Under the pieces are notes generated by a model that saw nothing but the letters and a program-made list of their open reading frames with translations, ran no database searches and was not told where the DNA came from. 64,000 bases of DNA from an uncultured Verrucomicrobiales bacterium (GTDB lineage Bacteria > Verrucomicrobiota > Verrucomicrobiia > Verrucomicrobiales > DEV007), in NCBI GenBank assembly GCA_937897075.1, contig CALCPI010000268.1, positions 2,521 through 66,520 on the forward strand. The letters are read 5' to 3'. Positions 211 through 19,489 of this stretch are shown here, one piece after another. The translations under genes and the position numbers were made by a program. Each line of letters begins with the position of its first letter. Within the stretch, counting starts at the first letter, position 1.

Positions 211-3200
211 TTACCGTCTTCCCTTTTTCTTTACCTTAAGAAAAAACGATCCTCGATCAGATTTACTGTCAGCAATTCTTGACTGGACAATGAAATAGAT
301 TCGCTTTTTGCGATCTCTACCTCGCAGTTTCTGCAGTTTCCTTTTACCCGGGCTGCTAATCGTGCAAATAATTTTTGATGCATCTCCCGGTGCTACTGCG
401 ATTTCAAATGTCCCGACACTCGCTGCAGCGGAAATGTTTTCATATCCTTCCTCACCGAGTCGTAACAGGCTGTAGCGAAATGGTCGAATCCGTGTGATGG
501 CGGATATTAGCCCTAAACTATCTTCCACGATTCCATCATTTTCGATTTGAAAATAAGCTCTATAATTTTTCTTCCGGCGCGTCGTTCCCTTCGCGTGAAC
601 TGTCTGAGGAGAGTTAAAGGGATTATCTGAATAGACGTTACCTCCAATCAATCCTATCGGTGATCGGCCGGCAAGTAAATCAGGTTGGTAGAGAAAAGGA
701 TCGTTGCTTGAGTAGTTTACGCCGGTTCGCAAGGTCCAGGGACCTCCTGGTCCCTCGGACGTAAAGTAAAATAGACCATCATCCGACTGCCCGCCGCCAA
801 TCGCATACGACCCGGGTGAGCCGGGGACGAAGTCGTCGAGAAGGACGGTCCCATCGCTGGTCCCGTCACTCATCCATAGTTCAGAGCCACTTTCACCGTC
901 ATCCGCCTGAAAAAACAGTAGTTCGTTTATGATGCGGAATTGTGAAATTGTAGAGTTTTCAGTCGAGGGGCTAAGATTCTCCAGCTTGAAAGTTCCAATG
1001 TCTGTCCCATCCGACCTCCAAATGCTTTCCCCTTCTAGCGTATCGATTACACTGAAATACAGGATGCCGTCATTGTTGAGAAGACTGCCAAAGCGACGCA
1101 GACCTCCGGAAACCGGTAGATTCACTCTTACCGTTCCTTCATTAGTCCCATCGGACAGCCAGAGCATTTGTTCGAAATTTAAAGTGAAAAACAGGAGGCC
1201 GTTGACATCCGTTAATTGATCCGGGTTTCCGGCATAGGATCCGGGGTAAGTATCCTTCAAGAGAACTGTTCCTTCGGAGGTTCCATCGCTTATCCACAGC
1301 TCCTCACCTGTAAAAGGTGAAATTGATTTGGCATTAAAAAAAAGGTTCCCGCCGGAAACAGTTAATCGCGCCGGGTCTATCGGAAGATTGTCTGCGTTCC
1401 GGTCTATTACCAAGCTTGTGCCGTCAAAGGTTCCATCGCTCTTCCAGATCTCATCTCCAGGGCCATCATGCGCAACAAAGTATAGTATCCCTCCATTTTT
1501 AACTAGTTCGCGCGGGGAACCGAGCCCACTGAAATCTTTCACCACAACGGTTCCAACCTCTGTTCCGTCTGAAATCCAAAGCTGGTTTCCTCCGGAACTT
1601 GTTTCATCAGTGGCAAAAGCAATACCATTCCCGAAAGCCGTGAGATGCATCGGGGTGGTTGAGGCATCCCCGGGAGTCAAATCAGCGACCTGATAAGTTC
1701 CGGGACCGCTGCCATCACTTTGCCAAAGTTCAACACCACTCGTTCCGTTGTTGGCCGTAAAAAACAACCGGTTGTTGGCCACCGTGAGCTCGGAAGGATA
1801 AGAGGAGCCTTCCCCTGATCTAATATCTTTTACGATCGATGTCCCGCTCACCGTGCCGTCGGTCTTCCACAATTCTCTTCCCAACTTATCTCCGGCTGCT
1901 GTAAAGTAGTAAAAACCGTTAAACTCCACAAGCTCCTGACTCTCCGTGGAGTTCAGGTCCTTTAGAATGTGCGTTCCTTCTTCGGTTCCATCACTGATCC
2001 AAAGTTCGTTTCCCGAGCTTCCATCATTGGCGGAAAAGACGAGCTTGTCTTGATACTCAAAGAAGTTTGCTGCAGATGAACTTTCTGAACCTGGATTGAT
2101 GTCCTTTACGATCGCTGTCCCATCTGCAGTTCCGTCACTTCTCCAAAGTTCGCGTCCATGGATCCCATCTTTAGCTGAAAAGAATGCAATCTCTCCTATA
2201 CCAAGAAAATCAGCGGGATTTGAACTGTCTGCTCCCGGATTAATATCCAGAACCGGACCTGATTCATTCGATAACCCGTCTGACACCCAAAGTTCAGTTC
2301 CCGTCGTGGAGTAATCATATTTCCCAAAGAATACCAGGTCATTCCAGCCATAAGCGAAAGTATCTAGAGCAAAACGTGAAAAAGAACCACCACTCGTAGT
2401 CATTCTATTTGTTCCTATAGCAGTCCCGTTGCTTGACCACAGTTGTCTTCCGTTGGATTGATTGGAGGCAGTGAAGAAAATTCGATTTGCCTGCTCAATA
2501 AATCCTATGGGCTCTGAACTGCCACTTCCCGGGACCAGGTCTATTACAAGGCTCGTTCCAACCGAGCTACCATTGGTCCTCCACAATTCGTTCCCGTTTT
2601 CGCTGGTGATGGCAGAAAAGTACAGGTGATTGCCATAGGTAATCAGTTGAAATTCTTGTGAGGATTGCCAGTTACCCGGTCTTAAACTGTCCGTAACGAG
2701 TTCCGTCCCGACGCTCGTTCCGTCACTCTTCCACAGGCTGGATATCCCCGATTTATAAACCGTGAAAAAAAGCTCGTTATTGAGAATTGCACTCGATTGA
2801 GGAGTGATGCGCTCAATCTTTCCGGGGAACTCCCGAATATTTACCGTCCCTTCAACAGTGCCGTCGGTTTTCCACAAATCGTATTGGGAACTGCTCCTCC
2901 TCGCAGTGAACAGAAGAGCATCTCCTAGGACGATGGGAATCCGTGGTCTTGAATCTTGAGTCCCGGGATAAATATCTTTCAAGAGGAATGTGCCGTCTGA
3001 GCTTCCATCACTCACCCAAAGCTCTGCTCCATTAACATCATCTACTCCCACGAAGAACAGATGCCCCCCGGCTTCAGAAAGATTGTATGGCCCTGATGTT
3101 AAATTGACTCCAGGATAGATGTCCTTCAAAAGAACAGTTCCACTTTCCGACCCATCCGTTTTCCAAATCTCTTTTCCATGCAATTCATTGGTGGCTACAA

Positions 3201-4278
3201 AAAACAGTGCATTATTGAAGACCGCAAACGAGGAGGGGGATGAGGAACCAACTCCGGGATAAATATCCTTCACCAGCACGGTGCCCTCACTGGTTCCATC
3301 ACTTTTCCACAATTCTGCCCCTTCATTTCCATACTCAGCGCTGAAATAAAACTCACCGTTGAATTCGGTGAACCCTTCAGGGAACGATCCTGATTCACCG
3401 CGAAACGCTTGCAGAGAGCTGCTGATAAACGGATCAATCGTGATCGGATAGGAAGCGCCCGAATCTTCAAAAGCGAGGGCAATTGTATGCTTCCCATCCC
3501 GACTCTCGACCAAGCGCAGCTCCGAGTCCAAAACCGATCCAGCGGAATCAAACACAACCAGACCGTGATAGTACAATTGGGCCGTTTCGTTGGCGTCAGA
3601 GAACTCAATAAAGCGTTCTCCCCTATCACCCTCGAGCAGTTCTGCTTTCAAGTCTGAGACAATTTCCAATTCCAATTGCTTCCCGCTCAAAGTGCTACCG
3701 ATCGAAGCGGGATCAGCGATTTCAAACCCTTGCTCCAATCCGTCCGCTGTATTTTGATACCACTCGATTATTCCCTTTTCCCTTCTCCGGGATACCATTG
3801 ATTCAGCAAGGTCAAAAGCATCGGGCTTCCCTTGTATTTGAGGGGTGATCGACCACGACCAGTCACCGGATCTCTCCGGGCCTTCAACGACTACTGTCCC
3901 ATCCTCTGGAAATTCAAAGAGTAGATTTTGCCGCTTATTTTCACAACTTAGCACTTCGCCACCACCGGACGGATGCTCCTTCGCATGGAAGAAATAGTCA
4001 GATCCCTCCGACCGTTTTGTGGTCGACTTAGTGATTATACGGGCAAACTGTTCAAAAGCCGCTTTTTGACTCTTCGAATACTCCTTTCCGGAAATTGAAT
4101 ATCCTTTGCCAATCTGCCGATCCGGCTCAGCACCGGAATGTTTCACTTTCGAGACATTCGACTGAAGCTTTTCCTTGTCGTTTGCGCTTGTATCAGAACC
4201 TGATGGCAGGCCTTTCCAAAAAATAAGGGCCGTGAAAAGGCAAGTTACGGCAAACAGGGAATATCGAATAGTCTTCAC
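211..4278 (-). CDS. Large secreted/surface ELWxxDGT-repeat beta-propeller protein with an N-terminal domain ending YPITIDP and a basic C-terminal domain
   Basis: 18 repeats of [EQS][LI]Wx[ST][DN]G[TS]xxGT. The GTG at 4278 gives VKTIRYSLFAVTCLFTALIFWKG, a signal/anchor; the ORF track extends to 4368. The last 159 aa are K/R-rich. Confidence 0.9.
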   Translation of the reverse strand: MKTIRYSLFAVTCLFTALIFWKGLPSGSDTSANDKEKLQSNVSKVKHSGAEPDRQIGKGYSISGKEYSKSQKAAFEQFARIITKSTTKRSEGSDYFFHAKEHPSGGGEVLSCENKRQNLLFEFPEDGTVVVEGPERSGDWSWSITPQIQGKPDAFDLAESMVSRRREKGIIEWYQNTADGLEQGFEIADPASIGSTLSGKQLELEIVSDLKAELLEGDRGERFIEFSDANETAQLYYHGLVVFDSAGSVLDSELRLVESRDGKHTIALAFEDSGASYPITIDPFISSSLQAFRGESGSFPEGFTEFNGEFYFSAEYGNEGAELWKSDGTSEGTVLVKDIYPGVGSSSPSSFAVFNNALFFVATNELHGKEIWKTDGSESGTVLLKDIYPGVNLTSGPYNLSEAGGHLFFVGVDDVNGAELWVSDGSSDGTFLLKDIYPGTQDSRPRIPIVLGDALLFTARRSSSQYDLWKTDGTVEGTVNIREFPGKIERITPQSSAILNNELFFTVYKSGISSLWKSDGTSVGTELVTDSLRPGNWQSSQEFQLITYGNHLYFSAITSENGNELWRTNGSSVGTSLVIDLVPGSGSSEPIGFIEQANRIFFTASNQSNGRQLWSSNGTAIGTNRMTTSGGSFSRFALDTFAYGWNDLVFFGKYDYSTTGTELWVSDGLSNESGPVLDINPGADSSNPADFLGIGEIAFFSAKDGIHGRELWRSDGTADGTAIVKDINPGSESSSAANFFEYQDKLVFSANDGSSGNELWISDGTEEGTHILKDLNSTESQELVEFNGFYYFTAAGDKLGRELWKTDGTVSGTSIVKDIRSGEGSSYPSELTVANNRLFFTANNGTSGVELWQSDGSGPGTYQVADLTPGDASTTPMHLTAFGNGIAFATDETSSGGNQLWISDGTEVGTVVVKDFSGLGSPRELVKNGGILYFVAHDGPGDEIWKSDGTFDGTSLVIDRNADNLPIDPARLTVSGGNLFFNAKSISPFTGEELWISDGTSEGTVLLKDTYPGSYAGNPDQLTDVNGLLFFTLNFEQMLWLSDGTNEGTVRVNLPVSGGLRRFGSLLNNDGILYFSVIDTLEGESIWRSDGTDIGTFKLENLSPSTENSTISQFRIINELLFFQADDGESGSELWMSDGTSDGTVLLDDFVPGSPGSYAIGGGQSDDGLFYFTSEGPGGPWTLRTGVNYSSNDPFLYQPDLLAGRSPIGLIGGNVYSDNPFNSPQTVHAKGTTRRKKNYRAYFQIENDGIVEDSLGLISAITRIRPFRYSLLRLGEEGYENISAAASVGTFEIAVAPGDASKIICTISSPGKRKLQKLRGRDRKKRIYFIVQSRIADSKSDRGSFFLKVKKKGRR
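847..3315 (-). repeat. Intragenic array of 18 ELWxxDGT repeats (~46-50 aa each)
   Basis: Counted in the translation from ELWKSDGTSEGT to ELWMSDGTSDGT. Confidence 0.9.
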
Positions 4279-4397
4279 GAATGGTATCCACACTAACGTA
4301 GTGACAATTCTGATCAAGCCGTTTCCACGTATCCGATGGCATGAAGTAGCAGAGAATTCGCTTGTCATACATTTTTCATCCCTGCTACCTTTCCCGC

Positions 4398-6772: not shown

Positions 6773-6802
6773 AAAGCGCCCGATCGAAAGATCGGGCGTT
6801 TT
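6773..6802 (+). terminator. Intrinsic terminator, possibly bidirectional, between convergent operons
   Basis: Perfect 9-bp stem CGCCCGATC-GAAA-GATCGGGCG followed by TTTT and preceded by AAAG. Confidence 0.85.
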
Positions 6803-6872: not shown

Positions 6873-7115
6873 CTACGCGTTTCGACCGGAAGAGCGTTCC
6901 AGGATCCCCTCTTCTTCTTTCAACTCGTCAGTTAATCGTTCCAGGGCCCGGTCAGACAGATTGTTGTCGGCTTCCAGATCGACAACCTGCATGACATTCT
7001 TTTTCCAGATTAGATACCCCCAGCCCAGCCCGACCAGAACGAACAGGAGGGCGCAAGCGATGAAATAGAGGATTCCATTTCCCTCCGGGGAGGTCAGAAT
7101 TTCAGGAAGTGTCAT
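6873..7115 (-). CDS. Small single-pass membrane protein with a short coiled coil (ArfB-like position in the operon)
   Basis: 80 aa with TM ILYFIACALLFVLVGLGWGYLIW-KKN followed by a charged helix. Lies 34 bp downstream of the 1107-aa gene. Confidence 0.75.
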   Translation of the reverse strand: MTLPEILTSPEGNGILYFIACALLFVLVGLGWGYLIWKKNVMQVVDLEADNNLSDRALERLTDELKEEEGILERSSGRNA

Positions 7116-7149
7116 TACACAAGCGGTCTTGACCGGATTCTATACAAAT

Positions 7150-10100
7150 TCAGTTCACGGTTTCAGCAACCGCTTCCGCGATCAGGTTCACTTCCACTCG
7201 CCTAGCTCTCCATGAATCTTCGGATTGGCCGAACGATTCGTCTTCCCCTCCGCTTTGAACGCTGATGAGGGAATGAGAGACTCCATTTTCCATGAGCCGT
7301 TCCCTGACTGCCTCGGCGCGTCTCGCACTGAGAGATTCGTTCATTGCTTCACTCCCTTCGGCACCGGAATAACCCAGCACCGAGATTTTGATGCGACCAC
7401 CTGCGCTGCGAACTTCTCTTGCTGCGCGATCGATTTCGATTAGGGCTTCGCCGTTCAGGTTGACCTTGGTGTCGTCAAAGAAGACGCGGAGACTTCCATT
7501 TCCTGAATCTTCAAAGTGAGGAGCAATTGCTGATTTCACCCGGTTGATACTGTGAGGAGATTCTTCTCCTTCGACCGATGCTTCAGATTCCTGGAAGTTT
7601 TCCCGCTGCCTTTCGTAGGTCAGCTGGTCTTCCAGCTCGCGAATAGCCATTTGCTTGAACGAAAGATCATTCCGCAATGTCTCGACCAACTCCTTCAGAT
7701 GAGAAGCGGATTCTTCTTGGTGCTCATGCTGATGGTGAGCGGCACGGCCACTCTCCAATTCCTGTTGAGCTGACTGCAGTTCTTCAAGAGCTCGGTTCAG
7801 ATCTTCAATAGCAGTGTCCTTTTCACCTTGGGCAGACTGAAGCTTCGCTTCCGCGGCCTCTAACGGTTCCGCAGTAGCAGCAATCTCATCCTGCAACAAT
7901 TCGATACTTTCCGTTTGCGATAAAAGCTCTATCTGATGCGCCTGCTTGATCTCGATAATCTCCTCACGCAGGACAACCAGTTCATTCTCACAGGAGCCAA
8001 AATTCTGTTCCGCATCAACGGCCCGGGCTTCCAGTAGGGCTATTGAATCTCCAAGAGCGTTGATTTGATCGTCTTCAGAAGCGAAGAAATCTGACATACT
8101 TGGCTGAGACCCTCCATCATCACTGTCATTACCCCCGAATGATTGAAAATCGCCATGGATCAGTCGATTAATCCGATCAGAAAAATCACCAAGCTGTTGG
8201 GTTTTAACATCCAGGACTTCAGCAAGATGGGTGCTGTTGGTCTCTAGCGTCTCCTGAGAGTGCTGGGCTGCCGCAAGCTGCGACTTCAACTCATCATTCT
8301 CAGTTTCAGCGGTTTCGACTTCCATTTTCAAGGTCGCAATGGACTGTTCCTGCATGGACTGAGTCTCTTCAGAGCTTAAAGCTTCACCCCGAAGCAGATC
8401 GAGATCCCTGGCCATTGTTAGATTCATTTGCTCCAGTTCCTGGACCTTCGTGGTAAGATCCTCCGAACCCGTTTCAATCGTTTCCAATTGTTCACGGGCA
8501 GCTTCCAGCTCACTCTTGGCAAGCTCAAGTGCTTCAGATTTTTCTGTAGCCTCTGTTTTCATGAGATTGTAACGGTCTTCGAGCACCAGCATTTTCTGGC
8601 GGCGTCCTTCGACATCAGAAGACATCTCCTCCATATCTGCCGTCATCTTCTTGACCTCATCCTTCGATTCCGTGAGTTCCGTCTCCAGATCAGCGATCTG
8701 TTTGCTCATGATGCCGTTGTCCCACTTCAGATCATCCAACTCTTTGGATACTTCCTGAGAATGGCTCGAGGAGCGATTTAGAGTGCCAGTAGCGATCTCC
8801 AGTTGGGTGCTGATGCGATTCATCTCGCCGTATCGATTGGAGAGAGCGAGTTCGACTTCCGCGATGCGCCCGGTGAGCATCTCGGCAATAGAAGCTTTTT
8901 CCAAAAGCTCGCTGCTCATGCTCGAATGCCCTTCAGTCATCCCTTCGAGGTCTCCCTCTTGCTCAGCGACTTTCACCCGAAGATTGCGGATCAGTTCCCT
9001 CTGGGATTCCAGTTCCTTAACAGCGTCACTCACTTCTGCATTTCGGTCGTCCACAATAGCCTCAAGCTCTTCGATTTGATTCCCCAAATCTGTGAGTTCC
9101 GATTTCTGCTCCGCTTCTCTTCTGCGGAACTGGCTCAATTCGTTCGCGGTGCTTTCCACTTCTTCGGTGAGTCTTCCGATCTCTGAATTCGCCTCTTCTA
9201 ATTCTTCCGGGGCAATAGCATTGCTTTCCAGAGCGGATTTTGCGCCCTCTTCTTCTGCCAGTCGCGCTTCCAGAACTTCGACGCCGCCAAAGGTTTGATT
9301 ATAACCTTCACGAACATCGGTCATCTCATCGAGAGCGTCTTTGAGCTCAGCCTTAAGGCGTTCGATGACACGATCTTTTTCAGCGAGCAGTTCATCACTG
9401 TCTCCATCCCCAAAACCTTCGGATGGCGGTGACATTGCAGCCATTAGCGGAACAATGGTCGTTTCGCTTTCTTTCGGGGCGTCGTCCACGGCTCCACTCT
9501 GAGCCAGCAGGTTTCCGATGGTATCGGATTTTCCAAGCGTTGCGATCTCGTCCTCCCGATTCTGGAGCTCCAACTCCAGATCAGAAATTTGCTGATAAAG
9601 TCCCTGGAGAGCTTCGGAATGATCATCCACCTGACTATCAAGCTCATCTTGAAGTGCCGTCACTTTCTCAGTGAGCTCATCCACTTTTGGTTCCGCTTCA
9701 GTAGTTGAATGTACCGCTGGGACAATTTCCCTGCTGACTTTGGAATCGCTGGATTGAAGGTTTTTCAGTTCGCGGCCACGCTGCTTCAGAAGAGCGGCAA
9801 GCTGGACACTTTCCCTGTAGCTTCCGCCTCCGTCTGTGGCGCTTTCCAATTTCGACTTCAAGTCAGTAACTGTTGATTCCAGTTCACGAACCCGAACTGA
9901 CTCCGGCTCTGCAATAACAGAATCAGATCCCTTGCCGCTGCGAAGTTCATGAAGTTTGTCATGAGCATCGACAAGATCCTGTTCAAGATCGGTCACTCTC
10001 GAACGCAGCAAACGCACTTCATCTGTTTCTGCACGGAGATCCAGGGAGTGATTCAAGCCTGAAATCTCTTCATCACGTTTTTCGAGGAGGTCCTCCAGTT

Positions 10101-10473
10101 CTGTTACCCTATTTTCGGCAGCTTTAGAACGAAGCGACTCTGAATCGGTGTTTTTGTTTTGCCCTTCTTCGAGCGCCTTGATCTTTTTATCACGGGACGC
10201 CAGTTGGACAACGAACTTTTCCAGCTGTGAATCAAAACCATCCCGATCTTCCTGCCAACGATTCCGGAGTTTTTTAAAAAGATCCCGCTGCGACCCACCC
10301 AGAGCCTGCCATTGGCTGGCCAGATTCATGTTCTCTTCGATTGCGGTGTACAATCTCTGGTTGTATCGACCCCAGATGAGCTTGGCAAAAAGTAAGCCAA
10401 TGCCAAAGAAGATCAGAACCTCGAGACCGACCATGAGCCAGTTTTGAAGCAAAAAGTTCAGTGCCTTTTCCAT
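7150..10473 (-). CDS. Membrane-anchored very long coiled-coil protein with a C-terminal OmpA-like domain
   Basis: N-terminal TM, then ~900 aa of E/L/Q-rich heptads. C-terminal FFDD...GYSG..G...N..LS.RRAEAVR..L..NGV....I....GE......RRVEV matches the OmpA/MotB fold. No Walker A motif. Confidence 0.85.
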   Translation of the reverse strand: MEKALNFLLQNWLMVGLEVLIFFGIGLLFAKLIWGRYNQRLYTAIEENMNLASQWQALGGSQRDLFKKLRNRWQEDRDGFDSQLEKFVVQLASRDKKIKALEEGQNKNTDSESLRSKAAENRVTELEDLLEKRDEEISGLNHSLDLRAETDEVRLLRSRVTDLEQDLVDAHDKLHELRSGKGSDSVIAEPESVRVRELESTVTDLKSKLESATDGGGSYRESVQLAALLKQRGRELKNLQSSDSKVSREIVPAVHSTTEAEPKVDELTEKVTALQDELDSQVDDHSEALQGLYQQISDLELELQNREDEIATLGKSDTIGNLLAQSGAVDDAPKESETTIVPLMAAMSPPSEGFGDGDSDELLAEKDRVIERLKAELKDALDEMTDVREGYNQTFGGVEVLEARLAEEEGAKSALESNAIAPEELEEANSEIGRLTEEVESTANELSQFRRREAEQKSELTDLGNQIEELEAIVDDRNAEVSDAVKELESQRELIRNLRVKVAEQEGDLEGMTEGHSSMSSELLEKASIAEMLTGRIAEVELALSNRYGEMNRISTQLEIATGTLNRSSSHSQEVSKELDDLKWDNGIMSKQIADLETELTESKDEVKKMTADMEEMSSDVEGRRQKMLVLEDRYNLMKTEATEKSEALELAKSELEAAREQLETIETGSEDLTTKVQELEQMNLTMARDLDLLRGEALSSEETQSMQEQSIATLKMEVETAETENDELKSQLAAAQHSQETLETNSTHLAEVLDVKTQQLGDFSDRINRLIHGDFQSFGGNDSDDGGSQPSMSDFFASEDDQINALGDSIALLEARAVDAEQNFGSCENELVVLREEIIEIKQAHQIELLSQTESIELLQDEIAATAEPLEAAEAKLQSAQGEKDTAIEDLNRALEELQSAQQELESGRAAHHQHEHQEESASHLKELVETLRNDLSFKQMAIRELEDQLTYERQRENFQESEASVEGEESPHSINRVKSAIAPHFEDSGNGSLRVFFDDTKVNLNGEALIEIDRAAREVRSAGGRIKISVLGYSGAEGSEAMNESLSARRAEAVRERLMENGVSHSLISVQSGGEDESFGQSEDSWRARRVEVNLIAEAVAETVN

Positions 10474-10518
10474 AATGCTGTTTCGTTTGTGTAAATTTTT
10501 CTACCTGATGGGTAAAAA

Positions 10519-10764
10519 CTAAGTTTGTGTCTCGGAGACCTCTGCCTTTAAACGGGAGAGCTCTTCATTTATTTGTTCGTACTTCGCCCGCGCAATACGA
10601 CTCTCTTCTTCGATGGATTCCAGGGCCCGCCGATTGCTTCGCCAAATCATCCATCCTGTAATACTTCCTAAAATCACCACGACTAGACCTCCCCCAAGAT
10701 AGGTCATTGCCCAGTCTTTCAGGAATAAGCCAGAGGCATCGGTAGCGGCGAAAAGGATCTGCAT
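10519..10764 (-). CDS. Small single-pass membrane protein with a short coiled coil
   Basis: 81 aa with TM LGGGLVVVILGSITGWMIW-RSNRR followed by heptads. Lies 28 bp after the BON/OmpA gene. Confidence 0.75.
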   Translation of the reverse strand: MQILFAATDASGLFLKDWAMTYLGGGLVVVILGSITGWMIWRSNRRALESIEEESRIARAKYEQINEELSRLKAEVSETQT

Positions 10765-10792
10765 CTTGATGTTATAAATTTATAAACAATTC

Positions 10793-12643
10793 CTATTCTG
10801 CGCCATCTTCTTTTTTGGCGTTTTCACTCTTGGCGATCGTAATCTCGACACGACGAGCTTTCCATCGGGATTTGGACGAGGTATTTACCTGGTCCACTCC
10901 AAAACTGACAGCCGAAATGCGATCTTCAGCGATCCCAAGTGAAACGAGGGCGGCCCGGACAGAACTTGCGCGCTTAATACTGAGGAGGCGATTCTTTTCC
11001 GGGTTTCCCAGTGTGTCGGACAAGCCGCCAACTTCGAATGGAAACGCAACTCCCGTTTTTTTAATAAGGTCGGCAGCAGTTTTCAGCTTGTCCATCTCAT
11101 CATTCCCCACTGCATCACTGCCAGATTTAAAATACACCGGCAATTTCTCTAATTCTTTAAGGAGAGCAACTTCGGCTTCCGGTTCCAAACTGGGAACAGG
11201 GACATAAATCTCTTCAAACTTCAGGGTGTTCAGAATCGTGAATGTCGTGGGAACTGTGTTCACAGCGAGATTGTGAAGAAAGCGCGTTTGCTCAACGGTG
11301 AGGGCTTCACCGGCAAGTTCCACTTTCCCGTTTCTGATCGAGGTTTCACCAAAATTGGTTCGTTCCATCACTTCGGATAGAAATCCTCCCAACTTCTCCA
11401 ACCACTCTTCTTGAATTGTAAGAGCCACAATTTGAATCTGGTTTTCAATCTCGACATCTGGATGATTGGAACTGATCTCGGAAACGAGTGATGCCACCAC
11501 TTCTTCAGATGGCAATATCCCCTTCAGAGTCAGCTTGCCGCCTTTAAATTCCGCCGCAATTTCCGGTTGAACCTGCTCTTTCGTCATCTCAGTCGTCAGA
11601 GTGACTTCAGCAATCACGTCCACAGATGTCTCAGACTTAGCCAGTTTCCCCAAAACACCGACAATCGCCCCCTGCTGTGCCTCGGTGCTCACCTGCCCTT
11701 TAACCAAAACCCGGTCGCCAGCATAGTGAACTTCGGCCCCGCCCTCCATTTCATCGATGAAAAGAGGAATTAAAGTCAGCGCATTGTTTAACCAGTAGGG
11801 AGCTTCAAGATCTGGATCCACTTCCAGATCTCCGTTTAAACGAACCAATCCAGGTTGGCTGGTGAACGCCTCCTTGATCTTCTCTTTTACTCGATCGTCC
11901 GGAACCTTCCCTTCGATGACTACGCCGAACCTGGACTTTCTCAGATGCATTTCTGAGGGGTTTGCAAAAACGCGCGTAGCCTTCACGGACACTTCGTCCA
12001 CAACAGAAGCCCCGGCGATTGACTTCGCGATCTCCATGAGACCAAACTTGATTCCAGCATTGTCCACCTCGGCCCGTATTGTCAAAACGCCATCTTTCAA
12101 AATTAATTCCGAGGCTTGTGAAGACGAAATCAATCCGGCGGCGAGTGACGCGAACTCGGCGACAGGCTCTAGAGGTAATCGCCGGGCATCCAGTTCAATT
12201 TCGTTAGCGATCGCATTGCCACCACTCACAGAATGAAGACGGGCACCCAGAAGACGTTTTGCAGCCTCCTCTTTCGAAGAAATACTGCCTTCAAGCTTTG
12301 CCGTCAGGGAATTGTTCGGCTTTGTCATATGAACCCAGGGGGCAAGGGTCGGCCTGATTTGCACCTGAAAATTATCCTTTTCCGGGAAATAGGCACCGGG
12401 CACCGATTTCTCGAGCAAGGGCAGCACCTTGGTCCTTTCTTCCTCGCTGTCGACAAACCCGGCCAAATCAGCAACCATATGATCAAAGGAAACTGTGACG
12501 TCTTTAAAGCCAGCCTCCTGGAGAACCGCCAGCGATTTGTCTTTCAGCTCCTGCTCAACTCCTTCCTTGTGACTATACCTTGCCAGACCGGCGAACAAGC
12601 CGACGGCGCCGAAAAAAAGGATAGCTACAAAAAAGAATCTCAT
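10793..12643 (-). CDS. ArfA (Rv0899)-like multi-BON-domain protein with a C-terminal OmpA peptidoglycan-binding domain
   Basis: N-terminal hydrophobic anchor and about 7 BON-like beta-alpha-beta units (e.g. VVIEGKVPDDRVKEKI, LTLKGILPSEEVVASL). OmpA motifs YFKSGS, GLSD..GN...N..LS.KRA..V and RRVEI are present. Confidence 0.82.
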   Translation of the reverse strand: MRFFFVAILFFGAVGLFAGLARYSHKEGVEQELKDKSLAVLQEAGFKDVTVSFDHMVADLAGFVDSEEERTKVLPLLEKSVPGAYFPEKDNFQVQIRPTLAPWVHMTKPNNSLTAKLEGSISSKEEAAKRLLGARLHSVSGGNAIANEIELDARRLPLEPVAEFASLAAGLISSSQASELILKDGVLTIRAEVDNAGIKFGLMEIAKSIAGASVVDEVSVKATRVFANPSEMHLRKSRFGVVIEGKVPDDRVKEKIKEAFTSQPGLVRLNGDLEVDPDLEAPYWLNNALTLIPLFIDEMEGGAEVHYAGDRVLVKGQVSTEAQQGAIVGVLGKLAKSETSVDVIAEVTLTTEMTKEQVQPEIAAEFKGGKLTLKGILPSEEVVASLVSEISSNHPDVEIENQIQIVALTIQEEWLEKLGGFLSEVMERTNFGETSIRNGKVELAGEALTVEQTRFLHNLAVNTVPTTFTILNTLKFEEIYVPVPSLEPEAEVALLKELEKLPVYFKSGSDAVGNDEMDKLKTAADLIKKTGVAFPFEVGGLSDTLGNPEKNRLLSIKRASSVRAALVSLGIAEDRISAVSFGVDQVNTSSKSRWKARRVEITIAKSENAKKEDGAE

Positions 12644-12832
12644 TCCCAGTTACTTTTAACGATAAATAATATTCAGTATTTACAAAATTCTCAACCCTGA
12701 TTCTACTTCTCCGCTGACTATTTTGCAAATCTTTGTAAAAGTTATCGCGTAATTTTAAAAATTCATGTAATTTATCAAAATTATAAATTATAGCTTACCC
12801 TTGTCATCCCGAACCGTCCGTTTCCGCCATAC

Positions 12833-15750: not shown

Positions 15751-17001
15751 ATGAAAGCTAATCGACGAAAATTCATAAAAGGTCTGGGTGGAACTCTGGC
15801 CCTTCCGTTTTTGGAATCCGAATGCTTTGCCGGCGAAACCGCTCCGACGCGATTCCTCGTAGCCGGGAATCCGTTCGGGATGCATCCGGACTACTTCTTC
15901 CCTAAGGAGTTGGGAAAAGACGCACCTCTCTCCCCCACTCTTCAGTCCCTCGACTGGTTGAAAGACCGGCTCACAATCCTGTCCCATACCGATCACAATA
16001 TGGTGAGTGGCCACGGACGTGAAGTTTCCTTTCTCAGCGGAGTTCTGCCGGAGGATGCTCTCGCATTTCCCGAAAAAAACATGTCAGTCGATCAGGTCAT
16101 GGCGCGTCATGTCGGTGTAAAAGTTCGCTACCCTGTGATCGGGGCCGGGCTGGACAGTGGAATTCGGATGAGTTGGACTTCGAACGGAGTGGAGGACGCT
16201 CCTTTTACCGATCCCCTGGCATTGTTTGATCACCTGTTTCTCAACCTGTCGGATCAGCAGAAGGCAAGCCGTCGCAATTTGATCGAGCAGAATGGCAGTA
16301 TTCTCGATACGGTTGGCAAACAATTCTCGAGGATGAAGACCGTCGTCAGCAATGCTGACATGGATAGGCTCGATCAGTATCAAACATCGGTTCGCGAATT
16401 GGAAAAGAACTTCTCCAATCGATTGAATTGGATCAAAACCGAAAAACCAACATTCGATATCTCAGCTCACGTGAATCACTCTGAGGTAACAATCGAAAAT
16501 CGCTATCATGCTATTTTCGACATGATCGCCTATGCCTTCGAAACTGATCTGACCCGGGTGGCCAATGTCGCCTTCCCGAGAGATCTCAGCTACACGGATG
16601 TCGGAGGTGTGACTCGCAGCTACCACGGCTGCACTCACAACGGCAAGATGGACAATGTTACTGCGGAACTCGTCGCAATCGAGACCTTCCAAATCGCTCA
16701 GCTCTCGAGGTTTCTGAAAAAGCTGGATTCGATTAAAGAACCCAATGCTGATGGAACGATGCTGGATCACACCATTGTCGTTTTCGGTAGCGGGATGGGT
16801 TATGGCGGAACCCATTCGAACCGGAATCTGCCTATCTTTGTCGCCGGGGGCGGGTTTAAACATCTCGGACACGTCGATGCAGGATTGAACGGAGCGAGTA
16901 TGCCCTTGTGTAATCTCTACCTGACATTGCTGCAGCGATTTGGCGTTGAGCGGGATTCATTCAATACCAGCACCGGAACTTTTGATCTCGCTTATGCATA
17001 A
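15751..17001 (+). CDS. DUF1552 domain protein (Tat-type signal)
   Basis: NRRKFIKGLGGTLALPFLES, SVDQVMA, LDQYQTSVRELEK, GSGMGYGGTHSNRNLP and LCNLYLTLLQRFGV. Confidence 0.9.
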   Translation: MKANRRKFIKGLGGTLALPFLESECFAGETAPTRFLVAGNPFGMHPDYFFPKELGKDAPLSPTLQSLDWLKDRLTILSHTDHNMVSGHGREVSFLSGVLPEDALAFPEKNMSVDQVMARHVGVKVRYPVIGAGLDSGIRMSWTSNGVEDAPFTDPLALFDHLFLNLSDQQKASRRNLIEQNGSILDTVGKQFSRMKTVVSNADMDRLDQYQTSVRELEKNFSNRLNWIKTEKPTFDISAHVNHSEVTIENRYHAIFDMIAYAFETDLTRVANVAFPRDLSYTDVGGVTRSYHGCTHNGKMDNVTAELVAIETFQIAQLSRFLKKLDSIKEPNADGTMLDHTIVVFGSGMGYGGTHSNRNLPIFVAGGGFKHLGHVDAGLNGASMPLCNLYLTLLQRFGVERDSFNTSTGTFDLAYA

Positions 17002-19489
17002 AATTCTCCTCTTCACTTTCGCTGTCCTGTTTGCGGGCCAGGTTCGCGGGGATGAAGCGCTGCTGAAAACGCATTGCTCTGATTGCCACAACGACAAAAA
17101 ATCGAAAGGCAAATTTGAAGTCTCTTTCCTCGGCTCCGCGCCCACCAGTGAAAATTATGATCGCTGGCTCGATTGCCTTGATCTCGTTTCCGCCGGGGAG
17201 ATGCCTCCTGAGGATGATAGTAAACTGAGTGATTCGGACCGAAAGAACTTGGTCAACTATCTCGACAAAAAGATTCGAAGCTATGCGGCGGAATCCAAAT
17301 TTTCGAAACAAGCCCCGCCCCGGCGCCTCAACAATCGTGAGTTCGCCAACAGTGTTCGCGACGCGCTTCTCCTCGAAGATATAGGGACCCATTTGCCGAC
17401 CTCAAATTTGATTGGTGATTCACTGATGCATGGGTTTGATACTCACGCTGAAACCCTGGGCTTCAGTCGATTCCACCTCGAGCAATATCTCGAAGCGGTG
17501 CGGAAAATCGTCAACGCTACGATTCTGTCAGGTGAGCAGCCTTCAGCTCGGCACTACCCAATCGAGGCGAGGGACATCATCCGAACCAGCCTGCATCAAG
17601 CGAACCAAGCCAGAAGAACCGCTCCGCGAAAGAGAGTTCCCCACTTCGATTTTCTTGATCCAAAATTACTCGCCTACTTTGCTGGTTTCGAGACGGCTCC
17701 CGCGACCGGCTACTATCGAATAAAGATAAGGGCGACCGGAATGGATCGATTTCTCTACGCCAGCCAAGACACAGGAGTCTACCACGGCGATCCCGTTCAA
17801 TTGAAGATTCGCCTCGGTGACCGTGTGCGAATTGTCGATCTTCCCGACGAAGAAGAAACGGTAATTGAACTGAACGAGTGGATCGCGGAAGGCACCCGCC
17901 TCGAACTGTATAACCCGACTGACGGCCTGCGAATGAAAGGGAATGGGAACTTCAAATTCCAATACGCAATTGGCGGTCAGTATTTGAAAGACCATGATCC
18001 GGAAAGGTATCAACTACGCATCGATCAGATTGGAAATCCAAAATACCGCCACTATAACACAGGCGCTAAGCGATGGGTTCATTGGACAGGTTCCTGGCAA
18101 GGTCCCCGGCCCCGCTTGTTTGGTGCTGAACTTGAAGGCCCCCTCTATGAAAGCTGGCCTCCGAAGCGACAGATCGCATTACTCGGTGAAGATCCGAAGG
18201 TGGCAAACGCCAAGGCCATACTGAGTCCAATTGCAGAGCGTGCCTGGCGGCGGCCTCTTCGCGACGGCGAGCTGGATGACATCATCGCTCTGGTAAATGT
18301 GAAGGCCCGGACCTCCAACGATATCGAAGCTCTCAAAGAAGGTATTGTATCGATACTCGTATCCCCGGCATTCGTTCTTCTCAACACCGAGGACGTCGCC
18401 GCGCCGGATCGTTTTGCCTCAAAGCTGAGCTATTTCCTCCAAGGCACTTTGCCAGATGAAGACCTTCATAAAATGGTTGGCCGGGGAGAATTGCAAACCT
18501 ACCCGCAAGTTCAAGGCTACGTCCAAAATCTATTCGGCACCTCAAGCGCCAACGACTTCACGCGAATGTTCCCGAAAGCCTGGCTTGAACTGGATGACAT
18601 CAACTTCATGTCTCCCGATCCCGAGCAATACCCCTTCTATCACAAGAAAAATGTCAGTGAGGATATGGTCAATGAAGTACTGGCATTCTTTCGACACGCA
18701 ATTGAAGAGAATCTCCCACTGCCCGAATTTCTTTCCGCCGACTACAGCTTCATTAATGCAGATCTCGCCAAAATCTATCAGGTGGATAATGTGCCCGAAG
18801 ATTCAAAACTTCGTAAGTATGCATTCACCGACGGTCGCCGCGGTGGACTGACCGGGATGGGAGCTTTTCTCACCTCAACAGCAGACAGTCTTTCGACGTC
18901 CCCAATTCACCGCGCGATCTACGTGATGGAGAATCTTCTGGGGATTCACCCAACTCCACCACCGCCGGATGTCGTCATCACCGAACCTGATGTCAGGCAG
19001 GCAAAAACCATCAAAGAGATCCTCGCAGCTCACACGACCGATGCGAGTTGTGCAAGTTGCCACAAAGCGATTGATCCCTGGGGATACGCCTTTGAAAACT
19101 TTGACCCCACCGGCGCATGGCGGGAATTTTATACCGCGCCAAATGCGGCTCCCCTGAGCGGGGACGCTGAAGCTCCTGCAACGAAGAAAGGGAAGCAATC
19201 TTCCCCGGAGCCTGTCACCATCCCGGTTGATGCCGGAGCAAAATTTCGAAATGGAAGTGAGTATAAGGACATTACCGAATTCCGGAAGTTGCTTGTGACC
19301 GACGCCAACCGGGATCGTTTTGTCCGCTGCTTTATTACCAAGTTATTGACCTACGCCAACGGCATCGAGCCGGATGATACCGACTTTGTGGCAATCTCTA
19401 ACATTCTTGCGAAGTCGGCTGAAAAGGAATATCGAATCGTCGACACCATAGCTGCCGTGATCGACAGCCCTCTTTTTCGGGAGGAGTAA
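16994..19489 (+). CDS. DUF1592/DUF1588/DUF1587-type PVC cytochrome c protein
   Basis: ATG 16994 overlaps the upstream stop. Heme motifs CSDCH and CASCH, plus RRLNNREFANSVRD, TSPIHRA and IDPWGYAFENFD..G.WR. Confidence 0.9.
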   Translation: MHKILLFTFAVLFAGQVRGDEALLKTHCSDCHNDKKSKGKFEVSFLGSAPTSENYDRWLDCLDLVSAGEMPPEDDSKLSDSDRKNLVNYLDKKIRSYAAESKFSKQAPPRRLNNREFANSVRDALLLEDIGTHLPTSNLIGDSLMHGFDTHAETLGFSRFHLEQYLEAVRKIVNATILSGEQPSARHYPIEARDIIRTSLHQANQARRTAPRKRVPHFDFLDPKLLAYFAGFETAPATGYYRIKIRATGMDRFLYASQDTGVYHGDPVQLKIRLGDRVRIVDLPDEEETVIELNEWIAEGTRLELYNPTDGLRMKGNGNFKFQYAIGGQYLKDHDPERYQLRIDQIGNPKYRHYNTGAKRWVHWTGSWQGPRPRLFGAELEGPLYESWPPKRQIALLGEDPKVANAKAILSPIAERAWRRPLRDGELDDIIALVNVKARTSNDIEALKEGIVSILVSPAFVLLNTEDVAAPDRFASKLSYFLQGTLPDEDLHKMVGRGELQTYPQVQGYVQNLFGTSSANDFTRMFPKAWLELDDINFMSPDPEQYPFYHKKNVSEDMVNEVLAFFRHAIEENLPLPEFLSADYSFINADLAKIYQVDNVPEDSKLRKYAFTDGRRGGLTGMGAFLTSTADSLSTSPIHRAIYVMENLLGIHPTPPPPDVVITEPDVRQAKTIKEILAAHTTDASCASCHKAIDPWGYAFENFDPTGAWREFYTAPNAAPLSGDAEAPATKKGKQSSPEPVTIPVDAGAKFRNGSEYKDITEFRKLLVTDANRDRFVRCFITKLLTYANGIEPDDTDFVAISNILAKSAEKEYRIVDTIAAVIDSPLFREE

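Follow-up and report, generated by a model that had tools for sequence, protein, structure and literature searches.

A Verrucomicrobiales BON/OmpA operon predicted to hold a long, probably cytoplasmic, coiled-coil rod at the cell wall

Introduction

Operons that join a BON/OmpA protein to small membrane proteins are widespread. In the arfABC operon of Mycobacterium tuberculosis the first gene encodes Rv0899 (ArfA), which has an N-terminal membrane helix, a BON domain and an OmpA-like domain, and is followed by genes for small membrane proteins; a review calls the roles of rv0900 and rv0901 still elusive (PMC12183614). Here we describe a four-gene operon that begins in the same manner, found in a 64,000-nucleotide (nt) stretch of DNA (the window; contig CALCPI010000268.1) from an uncultured Verrucomicrobiales bacterium. 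It differs from arfABC in that gene 1 carries seven BON-like units as against the one in Rv0899, in that one of its products, that of gene 3, is a giant coiled-coil protein bearing another OmpA-like domain, and in its host, which is a diderm; genes 2 and 4 encode small membrane proteins. A preliminary description of the stretch had chosen arfABC for comparison, and it is the best comparison available, Rv0899 being the top fold match of gene 1. Literature searches turned up no description of this four-gene system. The reading that we favour, and consider rather probable, is that the operon encodes a wall-anchored complex that spans the inner membrane and carries a long rod in the cytoplasm.

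A coiled-coil protein is also paired with a membrane/OmpA protein in Group 1 Rup neighbourhoods, which contain a cytoplasmic coiled-coil protein and an inner-membrane protein ending in a peptidoglycan-binding OmpA domain (Wuichet and Sogaard-Andersen 2014; PMC4316618). The present operon departs from these in that its coil protein is itself membrane-anchored and in that gene 1 has no cytoplasmic domain before its membrane helix, the hydrophobic segment following directly on 'MR'. Neither a Rup (Ras-like) GTPase gene nor a signalling output gene was found in the operon, in its flanks or among the conserved neighbours of its relatives. The FtsZ-like/OmpA 'membrane remodelling' operon (PMC2875224) was rejected as a counterpart, there being no FtsZ-like or VWA gene here.

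Other likenesses are analogies of design only. HubP and FimV unite in a single polypeptide a periplasmic peptidoglycan-binding domain (LysM), a single membrane helix and an extended, very acidic region in the cytoplasm; in the operon the corresponding wall-binding and cytoplasmic parts would be divided between different proteins, which show no sequence similarity to HubP or FimV. In Zorya ZorAB a MotB-like stator is anchored in the wall and has a long coiled-coil tail in the cytoplasm, another case of a peptidoglycan-bound unit that holds a long coiled coil inside the cell. The PADLOC ZorB model matches only the OmpA region of gene 1 (E 1.3e-6), and membership in Zorya was rejected: the four genes belong to the core gene set of their genus, there are no defence genes, and no MotA/ZorA-type multi-pass protein is encoded, each product having a single membrane helix. 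In EzrA and YhcB/ZapG a short N-tail and one membrane helix with basic residues precede a cytoplasmic coiled coil, the same succession of parts as in gene 3; these proteins differ from the present case in lacking both an OmpA-like domain and a BON/OmpA partner in the periplasm, and Pfam and NCBIfam searches with the window proteins gave no sequence match to them. One account describes YhcB as connecting division with wall synthesis (PMC8163987).

Results

Four genes form a conserved operon of one genus

The four genes had been reported as co-oriented and separated by 28-45 base pairs (bp). The open reading frames (ORFs) sit on the minus strand exactly where they had been placed, with gaps of 28, 45 and 34 bp in the order gene 1 to gene 4, and each product has one N-terminal hydrophobic segment. 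The genes and their main domains are listed below, with positions counted in the 64,000-nt stretch.

10793..12643, minus strand: gene 1, 616 amino acids (aa); Sec-type N-terminal anchor or signal, seven BON-like units, OmpA-like domain
11219..12499, minus strand: seven BON-like repeats, gene 1 residues 49-475 (AlphaFold2 secondary structure; fold matches 2l26 and 2kgs; Pfam BON)
10862..11134, minus strand: canonical OmpA-like domain, gene 1 residues 504-594 (Pfam; Asp543 and Arg558 invariant)
10519..10764, minus strand: gene 2, 81 aa, predicted single-pass; acidic N-tail, membrane helix with GWMIW at its end, the residues RSNRR, and an amphipathic helix of 40 aa
7150..10473, minus strand: gene 3, 1107 aa; N-terminal membrane module, segmented acidic helical rod, C-terminal OmpA-like domain
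10174..10473, minus strand: gene 3 N-terminal module, residues 1-100 (mean column identity 73%; signature of the gene 3 family)
7177..7494, minus strand: non-canonical OmpA-like domain, gene 3 residues 994-1099 (Gly for the canonical Asp; Arg1052 kept; Glu1039 invariant; tail AVAETVN conserved)
6873..7115, minus strand: gene 4, 80 aa, predicted single-pass; paralogue of gene 2

BLAST and profile searches of related genomes, almost all of them metagenome-assembled and from uncultured organisms, recovered the order gene 1-2-3-4 in about 24 loci, with the large proteins at 26-35% identity and the small proteins at 35-50%. Among the related records, 'Verrucomicrobiales bacterium BCK34' does not bear a metagenome-assembled label; a literature search on that strain gave no result. 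The gene 4 ORF, taken at its greatest length, abuts or overlaps the gene 3 stop in at least nine loci, the real start codons being uncertain. A profile of the gene 3 N-terminal module found matches in 53 of the 57 other genomes of the genus, one marginal match among 29 other genera of the family, and 49 proteins in a library of 1.84 billion protein representatives. The operon is near-universal in the genus and mostly single-copy. The four genes are a real, conserved predicted operon of one uncultured Verrucomicrobiales genus, and the earlier proposal that they form a unit is borne out by this survey.

Were the genes chance neighbours, or part of a mobile or defence island, no joint function would be expected. 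The flanking genes of the window do differ from those of its relatives, as such a view would have it. Order and orientation are nevertheless maintained in about 24 loci that have diverged to 26-50% identity, the set is near-universal and mostly single-copy in the genus, GC content is uniform over the operon region, and PADLOC gives only OmpA and coiled-coil noise. We regard this explanation as extremely improbable.

Gene 1 is a multi-BON/OmpA protein resembling ArfA

Gene 1 starts with 'MR' followed by 19 hydrophobic residues. Its AlphaFold2 model, obtained with 20 orthologues, has a predicted local distance difference test (pLDDT) score of 84 and consists of a helix (residues 2-43), seven BON-like units within residues 49-475, each beta-beta-alpha-beta or alpha-beta-beta-alpha-beta, and an OmpA-like domain (488-603). 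Pfam BON (PF04972) yields a single marginal match (residues 36-83, 28.2 bits with a cut-off of 27), and Pfam OmpA passes its gathering score of 27.2 with 46.8 bits at residues 504-594. The anchor, the approximately seven BON units and the OmpA domain that had been proposed for this 616-aa protein are supported by these results, the number of units by the predicted fold. Asp543 and Arg558, the residues that bind diaminopimelate, are unchanged in 20 of 20 orthologues. The best match of the model among solved structures, using Foldseek, is 2l26, M. tuberculosis Rv0899/ArfA (E 9.7e-11); the fold also matches 2kgs, the N-domain of Rv0899, and after Rv0899 come the C-domains of Pal, OmpA, MotB and YfiB.

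This resemblance raises the possibility that the operon is an ArfABC-like module for acid or osmotic envelope stress in which the coil is an accessory without a scaffold role, although a stress role would also be compatible with a scaffold. The profile match of gene 1 points the same way as its fold: the NCBIfam ArfA/OmpATb model (NF051434) finds residues 367-474 with E 2.6e-19, and the two operons share the layout of a BON/OmpA gene followed by genes for small membrane proteins. Seven relatives (L034:2179-3495 and six further loci) also have an ammonium-transporter gene some 4 kb upstream of their operon. However, the ArfA match reaches 69.6 bits and falls below the 81-bit equivalog cut-off, genes 2-4 match no NCBIfam or Pfam model, including those for ArfB and ArfC, at E < 0.1 (the ArfB and ArfC sequences themselves were not compared directly), and, as noted above, what the two mycobacterial partners do is itself elusive. 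There is no ammonium-transporter gene near the window operon, and its proximity elsewhere, which recalls the 'ammonia release' phenotype of arfABC, may be a coincidence. A stress module would, moreover, leave a conserved helical rod of about 800 residues unexplained, and we consider it quite improbable as an account of the operon.

Genes 2, 3 and 4 have similar membrane modules

Genes 2 and 4 each consist of one membrane helix and an amphipathic helix of about 40 residues, in agreement with their initial description as small membrane proteins with a coil. Neither gave a significant match in Pfam, NCBIfam or PADLOC. In genes 2, 3 and 4 alike the membrane helix ends in a glycine-rich stretch and I-W and is followed by basic residues. 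Profile-profile alignment with hhalign relates gene 2 to gene 4 (97% probability, E 2.4e-11), gene 2 to the N-terminal module of gene 3 (85%, E 6e-6) and gene 4 to the same module (64%, E 6.5e-5), all three alignments being in register on the IW motif. Because membrane segments inflate scores of this kind, the two comparisons with gene 3 are only suggestive of homology.

The gene 2 family has 131 members among 5.8 billion clusters. Those of its members that bear a name are called hypothetical or have a label that is unrelated and evidently automatic; Verrucomicrobiales metagenome-assembled genomes account for nearly all of the named sources, and some members come from Tara Oceans samples. A word-index search with the small-protein profile retrieved only close orthologues, all 'hypothetical', a phylum-wide scan with a broadened profile gave only weak matches within unrelated large ORFs, and neither brought new domain contexts.

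Gene 3 carries a segmented acidic rod

The membrane helix of gene 3 spans approximately residues 12-34, and residues 1-100 are the best-conserved part of the protein. Beyond them AlphaFold2 (pLDDT 63) predicts about 800 helical residues in 12 helices, the longest being 631-780, 800-914 and 514-623, with disordered Gly/Pro-rich linkers at 315-363, 781-799 and 948-993. The heptad score is 0.647, against 0.399 +/- 0.02 in shuffled controls, and the protein is very acidic, with an isoelectric point of 4.45 and Asp plus Glu at 22%. A coil of about 900 aa, exceeding 100 nm when fully extended, had been anticipated. The long heptad-periodic helical region is there, but it is nearer to 800 residues and is split into 12 helices; since linkers segment the rod, the length of 100 nm becomes an upper bound. 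Matches of gene 3 to SMC, Rad50, JetC, LmuB, crescentin and similar proteins were set aside as coiled-coil noise.

Window-type orthologues of gene 3 range from 927 to 1343 aa, and several internal blocks are nearly invariant in spite of this variation, which indicates from the alignment that the rod is more than a mere spacer.

The operon elaborates a wider three-gene module

The same three-gene layout recurs around divergent BON/OmpA genes, both in further genera of this family and in a second family of the order. It consists of a BON/OmpA protein of 370-617 aa, a small membrane-coil protein recognised by the gene 2 profile, and a membrane-anchored coil protein that ranges from 205 aa to 1816 aa (the latter in locus L085). 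These third proteins share their operon position with gene 3 and are linked to it through matches to the N-module profile, at E 3.9e-7, 6.3e-6 and 1.8e-5 against the 1.84-billion library. Only the window's type and a short variant (L075/L081), in which the third protein has 552 aa, possess gene 4 and the OmpA-like domain at the C-terminus, and one genus has the multi-BON/OmpA gene alone (L077/L078). Judged from these sequences, the window operon elaborates, in one lineage, a BON/OmpA three-gene module that is more widespread in the Verrucomicrobiales.

Sibling third proteins that have no OmpA-like domain end instead in a conserved helix-hairpin-helix module of about 70 residues, with the pattern DDLKxIxGxGxxLExxLxxxGIYxxxQIAxW. 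Its matches include the extension at the C-terminus of subunit E of NADH-quinone oxidoreductase (NuoE; E 1.5e-22), as well as extensions of the alphaproteobacterial ribosomal proteins L21 and S2 and of the phasin PhaH; the PDB entries matched are the complex I subunit 9wqv_a (E 1.1e-19) and 8yy9_O (E 9.4e-18). NuoE, L21, S2 and phasins are cytoplasmic proteins. The helix-hairpin-helix end suggests a nucleic acid or a protein partner as the ligand of the sibling proteins.

Several of the sibling loci have features of their own. Two complete three-gene modules stand in tandem in one genome (L064/L080, 4851-12613 in L064 coordinates). In the second family of the order (L085:86-5536, genome G269) the gene for the 1816-aa membrane-anchored coiled-coil protein, in third position, is followed by a 1217-aa ORF without a Pfam match. 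In another genus of the family (L083:3274-5076, genome G141) five tandem helix-hairpin-helix modules follow a predicted N-out membrane helix. The short-variant cluster (L075/L081, 6403-10996 in L075 coordinates) encodes a small membrane protein, the 552-aa membrane-coil-OmpA protein and a second small membrane protein, together with an acidic repeat protein of 384 aa and a membrane protein of 375 aa that gives a weak OmpA match.

Flanking charges predict a cytoplasmic coil

According to the positive-inside and charge-difference rules, the distribution of Lys and Arg about a membrane helix is informative about its orientation. Within 15 residues of the helix, K+R is higher after than before it in 46 of 47 representatives of the gene 3 family (means 3.49 and 0.85), and the C-flank exceeds the N-flank in 120 of 120 members of the gene 2 family (3.75 and 0.42); the N-tails, of about 30 residues at most, are acidic. 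Genes 2, 3 and 4 are therefore predicted to be N-out and C-in. Gene 1, with 'MR', a hydrophobic segment and a net-acidic flank, follows the ordinary N-in export pattern, as does another OmpA-domain protein of the same genome, which begins 'MNKTK' ahead of its hydrophobic segment.

Because of these flanking charges and the cytoplasmic type of the C-terminal domain in the sibling third proteins, the long coil of gene 3 is probably cytoplasmic and not periplasmic. The altered OmpA-like domain of gene 3, described below, is a third observation that points the same way. The trans-envelope geometry at first proposed for this scaffold is thus probably inverted. With the coil in the cytoplasm, the OmpA-like domain at its end would be cytoplasmic as well.

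The OmpA-like domain of gene 3 has lost a canonical residue

The C-terminal domain of gene 3 passes the Pfam OmpA (PF00691) gathering score of 27.2 with 42.9 bits, but the Asp/Arg pair that binds diaminopimelate (G-x-T-D ... L-S-x-x-R-A) is incomplete. Arg1052 is invariant, and the position of the canonical Asp is Gly1037 in at least 90% of 22 orthologues. The closest paralogue of this domain within the genome is the OmpA-like domain of gene 1 (E 1.5e-8; the next, 3e-4), and the two have in common an unusual W-K/R-A-R-R-V-E ending. In the window's type the gene 3 domain finishes with an invariant tail, AVAE(T/S)VN. These similarities fit a duplication of the gene 1 domain, with fusion of the copy to the third gene and later change.

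The same domain is the main ground for an alternative in which the whole apparatus is periplasmic. Both OmpA-domain proteins would then be N-in and bind peptidoglycan, and the coil would act as a ruler or tie within or across an enlarged periplasm. As far as is known, OmpA-like domains bind peptidoglycan in the periplasm, both domains here pass the Pfam gathering score, and that of gene 3 has its nearest paralogue in gene 1; some family members keep Asp or Glu at the canonical position, and the range of gene 3 lengths is what a spacer might show. Several observations conflict with this arrangement. Lys and Arg directly after a membrane helix block Sec export, as classical work established, and throughout the family three to five such residues stand right behind the helix while the N-tails have none. 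The homologous N-modules of the siblings bear a C-terminal domain of the type found in cytoplasmic proteins, Gly takes the place of the canonical Asp in at least 90% of long orthologues, and a rod of 100 nm is too long to cross a periplasm of ordinary width. On balance we think the all-periplasmic arrangement unlikely.

Some points weigh against placing the coil and its terminal domain in the cytoplasm. The predicted topology rests on charge rules and domain analogy, and helix-hairpin-helix domains can function in the periplasm, as in ComEA, although the module type found in the siblings matches cytoplasmic proteins. A basal long orthologue (L036) keeps the Asp (GFADHEG) and the short variant L075 has Glu in its place (GYAEKEG); such acidic residues would fit ordinary periplasmic peptidoglycan binding. 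The invariant Glu two residues downstream of the canonical position (Glu1039) might compensate for the lost Asp. Finally, we know of no cytoplasmic OmpA-like domain.

Signals and surroundings of the operon

Candidate transcription signals were found on either side of the four genes by consensus match only.

12780..12807, minus strand: sigma-70-like promoter candidate, ATGACA-16-TATAAT, 137-164 nt upstream of gene 1 (11/12 consensus positions)
6777..6798, minus strand: terminator-like hairpin, approximately 75 nt past the gene 4 stop

The hairpin (6798-6777) has a 9-bp stem with seven G-C pairs and is the candidate for the shared terminator that had been noted downstream of the four genes, though its T-tract is weak. 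One flank of the operon holds a convergent gene for a Gfo/Idh/MocA oxidoreductase and a gene for a xylose-isomerase-like protein, and the other a divergent GtrA-like gene and a sulfatase gene; these neighbours are metabolic, and none is obviously related to the operon. They speak neither for nor against the part in polar growth, division or prostheca formation that had been suggested for the scaffold. In many relatives a PNPase gene and a gene for a 200-aa secreted protein lie upstream. The secreted protein was rejected as an additional member of the unit, its homologue in this genome being on another contig. Elsewhere in the window, 15751-19489 contains a DUF1552 gene and a gene for a PSD/PSCyt multi-domain cytochrome, a pair typical of the Planctomycetes-Verrucomicrobia group that agrees with the taxonomic assignment of the window, and a 1385-aa ORF at 211-4368 (minus strand) has no Pfam match at E < 0.001.

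Discussion

The analysis suggests how the products of the operon could work together; their physical assembly, their topology and the target tethered by the rod are inferred. In the wall-anchored arrangement with a cytoplasmic rod, gene 1 would be periplasmic and bind peptidoglycan, perhaps also a membrane surface. The products of genes 2, 3 and 4 would be homologous single-pass proteins, each with a short acidic N-tail outside and its C-terminus inside. The membrane helices of these three, which are rich in glycine and end in I-W-(R/K), may pack together, possibly with the anchor of gene 1, and the 40-aa helices of genes 2 and 4 could clamp the conserved first 100 residues of gene 3. From this base gene 3 would project its segmented acidic rod of about 800 residues into the cytoplasm, to a distance of at most about 100 nm, and the rod would terminate in an OmpA-like domain that lacks the diaminopimelate-binding Asp. 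The outcome would be a cytoskeleton-like tether held at one spot on the sacculus.

Such a complex would have its origin in the wider three-gene module of the Verrucomicrobiales, whose third protein usually ends in the putatively cytoplasmic helix-hairpin-helix module. We propose tentatively, as a possibility that falls a little short of an even chance, that the OmpA-like domain of gene 3 works in the cytoplasm: a domain copied from the neighbouring gene would have replaced the ancestral helix-hairpin-helix end, lost its Asp and come to bind something new, such as a precursor of peptidoglycan or a partner protein, so that the tether would be cytoskeletal in character and bolted to the wall. If this is true, it would be, to our knowledge, the first OmpA-like domain working inside a cell.

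Among BON/OmpA operons, this family offers a readable version of the layout with small membrane partners. It would couple a periplasmic wall anchor with homologous, predicted N-out single-pass proteins, the cytoplasmic parts of which would range from 40 to more than 1800 residues. The operon of the window is a near-universal, genus-specific marker of an uncultured Verrucomicrobiales lineage from marine and engineered systems. If the predicted topology is true, it would represent one way in which a bacterium can attach a long filament in its cytoplasm to a defined site on the cell wall.

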